A DNA stretch of 10,812 nt from a virus. The stretch lies in UHGV virus genome UHGV-0284389; one strand, given 5' to 3'. The notes beneath the pieces were generated by a model. It was not told the origin of the DNA. It ran no database searches and was given only the letters and a program-made list of their open reading frames with translations. Positions 3,082-7,911 of this stretch are shown here, piece by piece (the stretch's first letter is position 1; each line of letters opens with the position of its first letter). A program made the position numbers and the translations under genes.

Positions 3082-4410
<1,329 letters not shown>

Positions 4411-4785: not shown

Positions 4786-5118
4786 ATGGATGCACAAACA
4801 CGCCGCCGCGAACGTCGCGCAGAGAAACAGGCTCAATGGAAAGCAGCAAATCCCCTGTTGGTTGGGGTAAGCGCAAAACCAGTTAACCGCCCTATTCTCT
4901 CGCTGAATCGCAAACCGAAATCACGAGTAGAAAGCGCACTGAATCCGATAGACCTTACAGTGCTGGCTGAATACCACGAACAGATTGAAAGCAACCTGCA
5001 ACGTATTGAGCGCAAGAATCAGCGCACATGGTACAGCAAGCCACGTAGTGAAATGGGTGTGACCTGCTCAGGCCGCCAGAAGCAACGCGGAAAATCAATT
5101 CCAGCTTATTACGATTGA
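4786..5118 (+). CDS. N: antitermination protein N (lambda-like)
   Basis: 110 aa. MDAQTRRRERRAEKQAQWKAANPLLVGVSAKPVNRPILSLNRKPKSRVESALNPIDLTVLAEYH... is near-identical to lambda N, including the arginine-rich boxB-binding motif; the C-terminal ~25 aa diverge. RBS AGGAG. The track ORF 4654-5118 is an upstream in-frame extension. Confidence 0.93.
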   Translation: MDAQTRRRERRAEKQAQWKAANPLLVGVSAKPVNRPILSLNRKPKSRVESALNPIDLTVLAEYHEQIESNLQRIERKNQRTWYSKPRSEMGVTCSGRQKQRGKSIPAYYD

Positions 5119-5317: not shown

Positions 5318-5788
5318 ATGACAAAATCATGGAGCGTACCTTTTCCTGAATCAGAAACTGAACATGATGGAATGCCTGTTTTCTGGAGATTCCAAGCGAC
5401 AGTTGAAGAAGGTGGAATCAAAATATTCGCACTTCAATATATAGCTTTTCATCAGACAGAGCATTATGCATGGTTGGTTCCTGCGCATTGGATTGTTAAT
5501 TTTAAACCAGCACCAAATCAGTGGTTACAGGAATGGAAACAAAGGAGAAATAGATATGCAATTAAGAAAGTAGCAAAAAATGCAGAAAGATCTTTTGCAT
5601 TCCCAACGAAGAAACTTGCCATTGAGAGTTTATTGCGCCGGAAGAAATACCATTTAATGAGAATCAAACAAGATTTGGCTGTTGTATCAACTCTTGTTGA
5701 TGGGATGAAGAATATTGATACATCAACACCAGATATTGAATATAACTTTGGACACAACCAAGAAACAGAAAATTGGGTATTTTATTAG
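5318..5788 (+). CDS. hypothetical protein (156 aa), low-GC moron in the PL operon
   Basis: Good RBS (GAGGTGA, ATG at 5318). By eye the GC content is well below the flanking genes. The C-terminal half is K/R-rich; no predicted TM segment. No homology recognised. Followed by its own intrinsic terminator at 5893-5918. Confidence 0.6.
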   Translation: MTKSWSVPFPESETEHDGMPVFWRFQATVEEGGIKIFALQYIAFHQTEHYAWLVPAHWIVNFKPAPNQWLQEWKQRRNRYAIKKVAKNAERSFAFPTKKLAIESLLRRKKYHLMRIKQDLAVVSTLVDGMKNIDTSTPDIEYNFGHNQETENWVFY

Positions 5789-5892: not shown

Positions 5893-5918
5893 GCCCTCCG
5901 ATGTGAGGGCCTTTTTAT
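5893..5918 (+). terminator. rho-independent terminator
   Basis: GCCCTC-(CGATGT)-GAGGGC followed by CTTTTTAT. Confidence 0.7.
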
Positions 5919-5982
5919 ATGCATACCAATAACGCTTCACTTGAGGCGTTTTCGTTATGCAATCAAACAGAAGGAGCATCCT

Positions 5983-6153
5983 ATGCAACAGTTCGCTATT
6001 GCAGGGGCGGCATCGGTTCGCCCTTTCAACCCAATTTTATCGGTACAGCATTCACGAAAAAATATTTTAACCGGAGCAGACTTTAAACAACCAAGAATGA
6101 AAAGTTTGCTCGAAAAGCTTTGGGATATTTTGAAACAACAAGGCCGTCCATGA
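5983..6153 (+). CDS. cIII: CIII-like protein (FtsH protease inhibitor homologue)
   Basis: 56 aa from the ATG at 5983 (RBS AAGGAG, 6 nt spacing): MQQFAIAGAASVRPF...KSLLEKLWDILKQQGRP. Compare lambda CIII MQYAIAGWPVAG...RKLRDGWKRLIDILNQPGVP. The track ORF 5878-6153 starts inside the upstream terminator and is probably an artefactual extension. Confidence 0.6.
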   Translation: MQQFAIAGAASVRPFNPILSVQHSRKNILTGADFKQPRMKSLLEKLWDILKQQGRP

Positions 6154-6257
6154 GTTTTACAGATAACTGGTCAGACGAAGAATTCATTCGTCAGATGAAC
6201 AAAATGCTCAATCAGCACAAAGAACAGGAGAAAGATGATGATTCTGACTCTGAATGA
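6150..6257 (+). CDS. small acidic hypothetical protein (35 aa), overlapping the cIII stop (kil position)
   Basis: ATGA overlap with the cIII stop. Translation MSFTDNWSDEEFIRQMNKMLNQHKEQEKDDDSDSE. No homology recognised; may not be expressed. Confidence 0.3.
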   Translation: MSFTDNWSDEEFIRQMNKMLNQHKEQEKDDDSDSE

Positions 6258-6546
6258 TAAGCGTGAAATATCGCAAATAATCGCAAGTTTTACTGATGAA
6301 GATTACGAACGAATCAACAGTGAAGTTGATCGCCTCTGCAAACGTTGCGACCCAATAAGCGAAATGCTTCGCTCATATAAACCAGATGAACATACTAAGG
6401 ATGCTATCGACTGGCTGGAAGATGATGATTGTAACTATCAGGAAAAAGCCGCTGAATGGTTCTGGGATGCAATAACCGAAAGAGTTAAGGCTGAATATGC
6501 CTTCGCAATATTCAAACGCAGACACATTTTTGGAGAAGCTGCATGA
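6235..6546 (+). CDS. acidic hypothetical protein (103 aa) immediately upstream of recT (gam position)
   Basis: RBS AGGAG 6 nt upstream of the ATG; its stop overlaps the recT start (ATGA). MMILTLNDKREISQIIASFTDEDYERINSEVDRLCKRCDP... Not similar to lambda Gam by eye. Confidence 0.6.
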   Translation: MMILTLNDKREISQIIASFTDEDYERINSEVDRLCKRCDPISEMLRSYKPDEHTKDAIDWLEDDDCNYQEKAAEWFWDAITERVKAEYAFAIFKRRHIFGEAA

Positions 6547-7445
6547 GCAATATCGTTGAATTCGTTAAACAGCAGGAGCAGTTATTCTGCGGAGCATTGA
6601 CTGAACAGACGGTGACATGGGCTAAGGAAAGCCAGTTTGCAATTCAGTATTTCCAGAAAAACGATTACCTGGCTAAAACGGCACTGGCAAATCCAACCAG
6701 CGCACAGAACGCCATCATCAATGTTGCGGCGATCGGCATCACCTTAAACCCGGCCAGCAAACTGGCTTATCTGGTTCCTCGCGACGGCATGGTGTGCCTT
6801 GATATCAGTTACATGGGATTACTTCATCTTGCGCAATCGACAGGATCAATTAAGTGGGGACAATGCAAACTGGTGTACTCAAACGACACCTATGAATCAA
6901 ACGGCCTTGATTCAGCACCAACTCACAAATACAACGCATTTGGTGAGCGAGGCTCTATTGTTGGTGGTTATTGCACGGTTAAAACAGCAGATGGTGACTA
7001 CCTGACTGAAGAAATGAGTCTGGCAGAAATTAAAGCTGTGGAAGCAACGAGCAAGGCAAAGAATGGACCGTGGAAAACATTCTGGGAAGAGATGGCGCGT
7101 AAAACAATAGTTAAACGCGCCAGCAAATACTGGCCTAAAGCCCAGCGACTGGATAATGCCATTCACCTGCTTAACGAAGATGAAGGTATGCATCAGGAAC
7201 CAGTTATGCCACACAAATCAGAGGAAGATATCCGTGAAGATGAGCGGAAACGCCAGCAGGAAATAATGGATAAAGCACAATTTCTTTGCGATGAAATGGC
7301 TCAGGCAGAAAACATGGACGATTTGAAGCGATATTTTGCAGAAGCATATCGCCTGACATCTGGAATGAAATTGCAGCAGAACGTACAAGCCATTTACATA
7401 GAATGCAAAGCGAAACTGGAGGTTGCCAGTGAGCAAACTGTATGA
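6543..7445 (+). CDS. recT: RecT-family single-strand annealing protein (recombinase)
   Basis: 300 aa. The motif GPWKTFWEEMARKTIVKRASKYWP matches RecT GPWVTHWEEMAKKTAIRRLFKYLP. Sits at the bet position of the PL operon. Confidence 0.85.
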   Translation: MSNIVEFVKQQEQLFCGALTEQTVTWAKESQFAIQYFQKNDYLAKTALANPTSAQNAIINVAAIGITLNPASKLAYLVPRDGMVCLDISYMGLLHLAQSTGSIKWGQCKLVYSNDTYESNGLDSAPTHKYNAFGERGSIVGGYCTVKTADGDYLTEEMSLAEIKAVEATSKAKNGPWKTFWEEMARKTIVKRASKYWPKAQRLDNAIHLLNEDEGMHQEPVMPHKSEEDIREDERKRQQEIMDKAQFLCDEMAQAENMDDLKRYFAEAYRLTSGMKLQQNVQAIYIECKAKLEVASEQTV

Positions 7446-7911
7446 AATAGCCAATGAATACGCAAAGCTGATGGATTCAGATTTAGAGCCAGAGATGATT
7501 GCTGACACAATAGCAGGCATGGAAGGAGAATTTACCGATAAAATAGAGCAACTTCTTGCCATTATTAAAAATGAATCTGGTTATGCTGAACGCCTCAAGG
7601 ACGAGGCAAAGTCACTGAATGAACGAGCAGCAGTAATTCAAAATAAGATTGACAGCATTATGGCGTATATAGCGTCATCGCTTGAAATGGTTGGCAAGAA
7701 AAAGATTCGAGCAGGTATTCACCAGGTAACAATCCGCAAACCGTCAGAAACTGTAGAAATCATCGACTCAAGCGCCCTTCCTCCTGAATACGTTGAGTTT
7801 GAAACGACAATTAAAGCCGACAAGTTGGCAATCAAACACCAACTAAAAGCAGGAATAAATATCCCCGGTGCTCAACTCAAAGTTGGGAAACCTTCACTTC
7901 TTATCAAATAA
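7429..7911 (+). CDS. Siphovirus Gp157-like protein
   Basis: Probable GTG start at 7429 (RBS GGAGG 7 nt upstream; the track uses TTG at 7423). The N-terminus SKLYEIANEYAKLMD...EPEMIADTIAGMEGEF and predicted coiled-coil resemble the Gp157 family often found next to RecT/ERF genes. Assigned from memory. Confidence 0.5.
   Translation: MSKLYEIANEYAKLMDSDLEPEMIADTIAGMEGEFTDKIEQLLAIIKNESGYAERLKDEAKSLNERAAVIQNKIDSIMAYIASSLEMVGKKKIRAGIHQVTIRKPSETVEIIDSSALPPEYVEFETTIKADKLAIKHQLKAGINIPGAQLKVGKPSLLIK

Follow-up and report, generated by a model that had tools for sequence, protein, structure and literature searches.

An acidic gene between cIII and recT of a lambdoid phage with a predicted fold like that of the nuclease inhibitor Gam

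Introduction

What does a lambdoid phage encode in the position of kil and gam when neither gene is recognized there? The question is raised by a 10,812-nucleotide (nt) stretch of UHGV virus genome UHGV-0284389, called the window throughout, which comes from a lambdoid phage or prophage, spans its immunity and early regions, and has the pL operon on the + strand. Between genes for cIII (phrog_550, E = 1e-22) and RecT (PF03837, E = 2e-33) there are two small acidic open reading frames (ORFs) of 35 and 103 codons with overlapping start and stop, orf35 (6150–6257, + strand, isoelectric point 4.27) and orf103 (6235–6546, + strand, isoelectric point 4.65). A sequence-only reading made before this analysis had named the same flanking genes and both ORFs, and had suggested the 103-aa protein as a candidate nuclease inhibitor or host-takeover factor. 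Several independent computational lines of evidence now support that suggestion, whereas orf35 does not look like a Kil-like protein. We put the probability that orf103 encodes a RecBCD-type nuclease inhibitor with the Gam fold, as a very divergent and unannotated relative of Gam, at roughly 65%.

Four types of anti-RecBCD protein, Gam, GamL, Abc2, and MuGam, have been distinguished in 325 lambdoid phages, with the observation that the predicted folds of Gam and GamL agree although their sequences are unrelated (Zheng et al. 2025, PMC12315714). In lambda, the GamS dimer plugs the DNA site of RecBCD through DNA mimicry (Wilkinson et al. 2016, PMC5218532). Phage HK140, one of the carriers of orf103, is listed as having RecT and MuGam only (Zheng et al. 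2025, PMC12315714), and the orf103 gene was therefore not counted in that survey.

The orf103 gene family

Orf103 is a real and conserved gene. It matches phrog_3486 (annotated "unknown function") with an E value of 4e-59, and a profile search of 1.8 billion cluster representatives recovered 51 clusters (50% identity) at E ≤ 1e-3, nearly all of them 97–110 amino acids (aa) long, so it is more than a chance ORF. The family belongs to phages and prophages of Enterobacterales. An alignment of 36 family members has identities down to 25% and a conserved length. The proteins are named "hypothetical protein" in all sources (Escherichia, Salmonella, Citrobacter, Cronobacter, and Pantoea), and searches of Pfam, NCBIfam, and PDB sequences with the single protein, the family profile, and each member in turn gave only noise, the local Pfam copy used for the scans being one without PF28165 (GamL). 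The whole orf35–orf103 segment is present in 265 of 5,426 complete E. coli genomes (~5%) and in 203 IMG/VR contigs. About 12 sequenced phages carry orf103, including HK140, mEpX1, Kapi1, E212, Gally, Louie, SEN22, ENT47670, Midgardsormr38, and phiEt88. An IMG/VR locus search with a distant family member (P0040) found nothing.

The gene is tightly packed between its neighbors. It has 103 codons from the ATG at 6235 and 102 from a second ATG at 6238; the second is preferred by the family alignment and by the Prokaryotic Genome Annotation Pipeline (PGAP), which annotates the 102-aa form. An AGGAG ribosome-binding site (6226–6230, + strand) lies 4 nt before the first ATG and 7 nt before the second. 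At its 5' end the gene shares 23 nt with orf35 in a different frame, and at its 3' end the TGA stop and the recT ATG at 6543 run together as ATGA. Family members keep an E-(A/V)-A at the C-terminus, and its codons double as the ribosome-binding site and ATGA of the following gene; in the window, the GGAG of recT and the stop/start overlap (6532–6546, + strand) fall within the C-terminal G-E-A-A codons. Aspartate and glutamate make up 23% of the protein.

Chimeric proteins were also recovered (L009 584–961, which is P0022; P0009; and P0024). They keep only the first 40–55 residues of orf103, fused to unrelated sequence; the cases comprise a fusion with DUF551, a fragment of GntP, and a neighborhood of the Ead/Ea22 type. 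This pattern suggests prophage deletions or recombination events inside an orf103-family gene.

Comparison with Gam, GamL, and other anti-RecBCD proteins

A structure search with a good predicted model of orf103, an acidic and all-helical protein, returned lambda GamS as the top match among 48,164 chains; the predicted fold agrees with the helical fold of GamS in PDB 2UUZ. A first and weaker model (predicted local distance difference test score of 78) had given no significant Foldseek match in the PDB; its scattered matches to UvsY, at a template modeling (TM) score of 0.3, were rejected as noise. Foldseek comparison of the good model with BFVD was uninformative, yielding one 107-aa match and a weak match to an Edno5 protein.

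Sequence comparison may point to the same protein. When the orf103 and lambda Gam families were aligned with hhalign, columns 57–82 paired collinearly with Gam columns 58–83 (26 columns, 38% identity, E = 1.3e-3, probability 18%). The score of 22.6 exceeded all 100 column-shuffled controls (mean 11.1, standard deviation 1.9, maximum 15.3). In BLASTP, orf103 residues 54–74 (TKDAIDWLEDDDCNYQEKAAE) aligned with GamS residues 58–78 with 9 of 21 identities (E = 0.005), so the earlier remark that neither small protein resembles Gam by eye was not quite true. Pro40 and the N-terminal pattern L-T-x-x-D-(K/R)-x-E of orf103 are collinear with Gam and GamL. Size and charge are alike across the three families, with a net charge of −9 for orf103 and −10 for Gam.

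The similarity is local. The Gam hidden Markov model (HMM; PF06064, gathering score 25 bits) gave no match at E ≤ 1 for orf103 or any of the 36 family members, and lambda GamS, run as a control in the same scan, scored 217 bits. In global mode, hhalign failed to align the orf103 family with Gam. Orf103 and GamL were paired with probabilities of 6% (single sequence) and 0.2% (family profile), and a merged profile of Gam and GamL produced no signal. For Abc2, the hhalign probability was 0.7% and tblastn found no match. Comparisons of orf103 with Abc1, the HK97 Arf-like gp42, RacC of Rac, and a PF27050 protein likewise showed no similarity by hhalign.

Relative to lambda Gam (GamS, PDB 2UUZ/5MBV, PF06064), orf103 holds the same slot of the pL operon, after cIII/kil and directly before the gene for the annealing protein. 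It differs in having ~15% identity and no Pfam Gam match in its family, in an N-terminus predicted as two helices (6–17 and 21–35) where Gam has one long helix H1, in a longer C-terminal helix, and in having no long isoform. It is also paired with RecT and Gp157 without Exo, and is known here from its sequence and a model. GamL of phi80/Lula (PF28165; "host nuclease inhibitor GamL" at NCBI), which has the Gam fold but differs greatly from Gam in sequence (Zheng et al. 2025, PMC12315714), resembles orf103 in length, charge, and its N-terminal LT.(Y/L).D.. pattern, and stands directly before a RecT of the same sequence type (SAP-4-type). Unlike orf103, GamL has no DDDxxYQE motif, and the two give hhalign probabilities of just 0.2–6%. 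The gene before GamL in phi80 is Mog/Agt, which carries the annotation of a GamL antitoxin; the window has no such gene.

Genomic context of orf103

Gene layouts were counted over 80 close IMG/VR relatives, with neighbors checked within 3 kb. The orf103-family gene is nearly always the first of its recombination module, usually with overlapping stop and start codons. It precedes RecT and Gp157 in the window, in Kapi1, and in 79 of the 80 relatives (RecT alone was detected in the 80th). Other members precede RecT with an exonuclease/YqaJ (Cronobacter ENT47670, Erwinia Midgardsormr38, and three distant genomic members) or an exoVIII/DUF3799 nuclease (SEN22 and one metagenomic member). No Exo, Gam, GamL, or Abc2 was found in the 80 close relatives within that distance, and in the loci examined the family never occurs together with Gam, GamL, or Abc2.

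Two phages have recognized inhibitors in the same place. Phage Dewey shares with the window its N gene (97% identity), the following 156-aa gene (98.8% DNA identity), and the recT-gp157-regulator block (89% from window position 6541). Between these shared blocks, Dewey carries cIII, Kil, an 80-aa ORF, and a lambda-type gam (74% identical to GamS) that ends at the exact position where orf103 ends. In phi80, gamL, annotated "host RecBCD/SbcCD enzymes inhibitor," directly precedes a RecT that is 57% identical to the RecT of the window. Lambda-type gam and gamL are alternative occupants of the orf103 slot. These replacements, together with the GamS match, the collinear motif, and the Gam/GamL-like acidity and size, support orf103 as a candidate nuclease inhibitor or DNA mimic, as the sequence-only reading had proposed. 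They also bear on whether the resemblance to Gam is a coincidence of generic helical bundles, with orf103 being a regulator or having some other anti-defense function. We regard this as highly improbable: the top match among all chains searched is exactly the protein expected from the gene position, and motif, size, charge, and allelic replacement by true gam genes agree with it.

Mosaic borders fall exactly at the ends of orf103. Similarity to the window ends at 6546 in SEN22 and at ~6242 in SPN9CC, and in Kapi1 it begins at 6150. Orf103 therefore travels as a unit that is not tied to one recombinase. This matters for a reading of orf103 as an accessory recombination factor for the phage recombinase or host single-stranded DNA-binding protein (SSB), such as a loader or chaperone of RecT, and not as a nuclease inhibitor. 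Abc2, Abc1, and Arf of P22 are comparable as small proteins of the early left operon that adapt host RecBCD or aid the phage recombinase; orf103 holds the position of arf, which in P22, HK97, and Sf6 directly precedes erf, the gene for the annealing protein. The stop/start overlap with recT fits such a factor, as would the UvsY matches of the first model had they been significant. Yet in SEN22 a 95% identical gene precedes an exoVIII nuclease and not RecT, the mosaic border there falling precisely where the gene ends, and a distant member lies before DUF3799. Among structural matches the best is Gam and not a mediator protein, and orf103 has no sequence similarity to the P22 proteins (hhalign probability below 2%), the HK97 Arf-like protein, or RacC. 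We therefore find an Arf- or Abc1-like role very unlikely.

Some loci depart from the common layout. In SEN22 (L002 3809–5199), the orf103 homolog and the exoVIII-like nuclease are followed by a 189-aa protein of unknown function (phrog_11517) in the place expected for an annealing protein. One distant lineage (L011 4306–4629 / L012 2043–2366) has a 107-aa PF27050 gene (Phage_P22_Y8K6, phrog_1273, function unknown) between the orf103-family gene and RecT-Gp157. Homologs of Mog/Agt, the phi80 "antitoxin for Gam" type (~320 aa, charged coiled-coil; L007 2773–3732, L004 2265–3236, and L019 243–1211), were found, with identities of 55% and 40% upstream of two distant orf103-family genes. This association was dropped as support for a Gam relationship, since Sf6 also has such a gene (51% identity) though it has no Gam-like gene. 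Small ORFs of 38–50 aa in the kil position before distant family members (L004 3388–3504, L008 152–274, and L011 3865–4017) are alike and share the pattern A..(L/M)..EA...W..AM..L. They look Kil-like by eye, but they match only phrog_2180 (unknown) and not Lambda_Kil, so they are not taken as Kil here.

Recombination module and proposed role of orf103

Orf103 is followed in the window by a 300-aa RecT-family single-strand annealing protein (6543–7445, + strand; phrog_148, E = 2e-91) and a 160-aa Sipho_Gp157/Mu Gam-like protein (7429–7911, + strand; PF05565, E = 2e-35; Phage_Mu_Gam, E = 0.01; phrog_253, E = 1e-52), and then by a D5-like regulator. For the second of these genes the start at GTG 7429 is favored by a GGAGG at 7418–7422 (6-nt spacing), by the 160-aa length in Kapi1, and by the PGAP annotation; TTG 7423, given in the ORF list, is a less likely start. 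From GTG 7429 the gene overlaps the end of recT by 17 nt. The sequence-only reading overlooked this gene, whose product is a second candidate for DNA-end protection or an anti-RecBCD function in the module, judging from its sequence; the HK140 protein is classed as the MuGam type (Zheng et al. 2025, PMC12315714). Neither an exonuclease nor an SSB accompanies RecT and the Gp157/Mu Gam-like gene between 6543 and 8237 of the window, and no partner exonuclease of RecT is encoded elsewhere in the window.

Expressed early from pL as the first gene of this module, orf103 would be translationally coupled to recT. By analogy with Gam, its product would most likely form a dimer that mimics a DNA end and occupies the DNA-binding site of host RecBCD nuclease, possibly that of SbcCD too. 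Such blocking would shield linear phage DNA and rolling-circle ends and let RecT-dependent recombination proceed. A direct precedent, by analogy, is Plu2934 (Plu-gamma) of Photorhabdus, a small protein upstream of an annealing protein that has only a marginal match to Gam and functions in place of Red-gamma in recombineering (Yin et al. 2015, PMC4381043). Like orf103 it is a small protein encoded upstream of an annealing protein, there accompanied by an exonuclease; its partner is Red-beta-like and not RecT.

The make-up of the module also raises the question of whether a Gam-fold protein would simply block RecBCD. It might instead re-program RecBCD, as Abc2 does, to supply the missing exonuclease, or act on another end-binding enzyme or defense nuclease such as SbcCD. 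HK140-type modules have RecT and no exonuclease, and they already encode a MuGam-like end-binding protein that would make a plain blocker partly redundant. In addition, phi80 GamL is annotated as an inhibitor of both RecBCD and SbcCD, and the modeled N-terminal helix of orf103 is unlike that of Gam. Against this, orf103 lacks similarity to Abc2, which binds RecC and modifies RecBCD without DNA mimicry, and in Dewey the same RecT-gp157 block without exo is accompanied by an ordinary lambda-type Gam. Many family members are in modules with an exonuclease (YqaJ/exo or exoVIII), so replacing a missing nuclease cannot be the general role of orf103. On balance, a role other than simple blocking of RecBCD seems distinctly unlikely. 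A specific form of it, in which orf103 is a DNA-mimic adaptor that, together with Gp157, turns RecBCD or another end-processing or defense nuclease into the exonuclease or loader of exo-less RecT modules, and is no plain RecBCD plug, is if anything slightly less likely.

We infer that the orf103 family is a third sequence family of Gam-fold RecBCD inhibitors beside lambda Gam (PF06064) and phi80 GamL (PF28165). If so, a further type of host-nuclease inhibitor would be present in ~5% of complete E. coli genomes and in phages of Salmonella, Citrobacter, Cronobacter, Pantoea, and Erwinia, labeled "hypothetical" everywhere. HK140-type modules would then carry two anti-RecBCD functions, which would revise the view of lambdoid recombination modules, and modules of RecT with exo, or of exoVIII, that have no recognized RecBCD inhibitor would gain one. 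The family would have practical value for annotation and for recombineering, where its members would be candidate host-adapted Gam analogs, and it would supply candidate triggers or targets of defense systems that monitor RecBCD.

The probable junction ORF orf35

Orf35 has 35 codons, and its ATG overlaps the stop of the cIII-like gene (ATGA). It has a net charge of −7 and is 31% aspartate and glutamate. A Kil role for it is contradicted by several observations: it has no match to the Lambda_Kil HMM (PF06301), Kapi1 has a separate Kil (Lambda_Kil, E = 1.7e-20) upstream of its orf35 homolog, and so do 45 of the 80 IMG/VR relatives. Its matches are to phrog_17766 (E = 5e-16) and phrog_2123 (E = 3.5e-10), the type of HK97 gp42.1 and Sf6 gp30. 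A weak match to Arf (phrog_2445, E = 0.062) spans only 22 residues.

Conservation of orf35 is concentrated in its beginning. At the DNA level its first 49 nt, a widely shared boundary sequence, are nearly the same in HK97, Sf6, H-19B, and SPN9CC, and the first 50 nt are present in ~1,100 of the 5,426 E. coli genomes. Past 49 nt the phages part ways, each leading into the start and ribosome-binding site of its own next recombination gene; the 3' half of orf35 holds those of orf103. Codons 1–16 are identical to those of HK97 gp42.1/Sf6 gp30 (PHROG 17766/2123), with the N-terminal MSFTDNWSDEEFIRQM shared and the first 49 nt exact or with one change. In both cases the start overlaps a kil or cIII stop and the frame runs into the first gene of the recombination module, while orf35 is shorter and ends inside orf103. 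In HK97 the Arf-like protein is read in the frame of the shared N-terminus, whereas in Sf6 and SPN9CC the two overlap in different frames; in SPN9CC the same AGGAGAAAG serves as the ribosome-binding site of the arf-like gene. The DDDSDSE tail of orf35 results from reading the orf103 start (ATGATGATTCTGACTCTGAATGA) in another frame, and the acidity of orf35 looks to be largely a by-product of this overlap.

Orf35 is best read as a conserved junction or leader ORF, joining cIII or kil to the recombination module that follows and supplying the next gene with its translation start signals. An effector role is improbable; translational coupling may be its function. The other reading, a functional microprotein of the gp42.1 family such as a small acidic host-takeover peptide, has in its favor that the ORF is present in all 80 close relatives, is annotated in Kapi1, HK97, and Sf6, matches two PHROGs, and has a start coupled to the upstream stop. 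We nevertheless consider it unlikely, because the first 49 nt are conserved as DNA and the frame beyond them either diverges or is fused in a way that varies from phage to phage, the overlapping orf103 start accounts for the acidic tail, and PGAP does not annotate the ORF. Comparison with close copies gave 7 non-synonymous and 2 synonymous changes, with no sign of purifying selection.

Remaining features of the window

Upstream of the cIII-like gene (5983–6153, + strand, 56 aa), two tandem terminator-like hairpins with T-runs (5893–5910 and 5931–5950) occupy the tL1 position and are presumably read through by N antitermination. The N gene (4786–5118, + strand; PF11438, E = 2e-26) is separated from cIII by the gene for the 156-aa protein of unknown function (5318–5788, + strand; phrog_1636, E = 2e-111), for which Pfam and NCBIfam gave no match. 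The window has no Chi sites, a count that is uninformative in a stretch this short. A cI-like repressor is encoded at 3401–4033, and an ORF directly downstream of it (3958–4410) holds a signal-peptide-like stretch; it may be a moron of the immunity region that encodes a secreted protein or lipoprotein.
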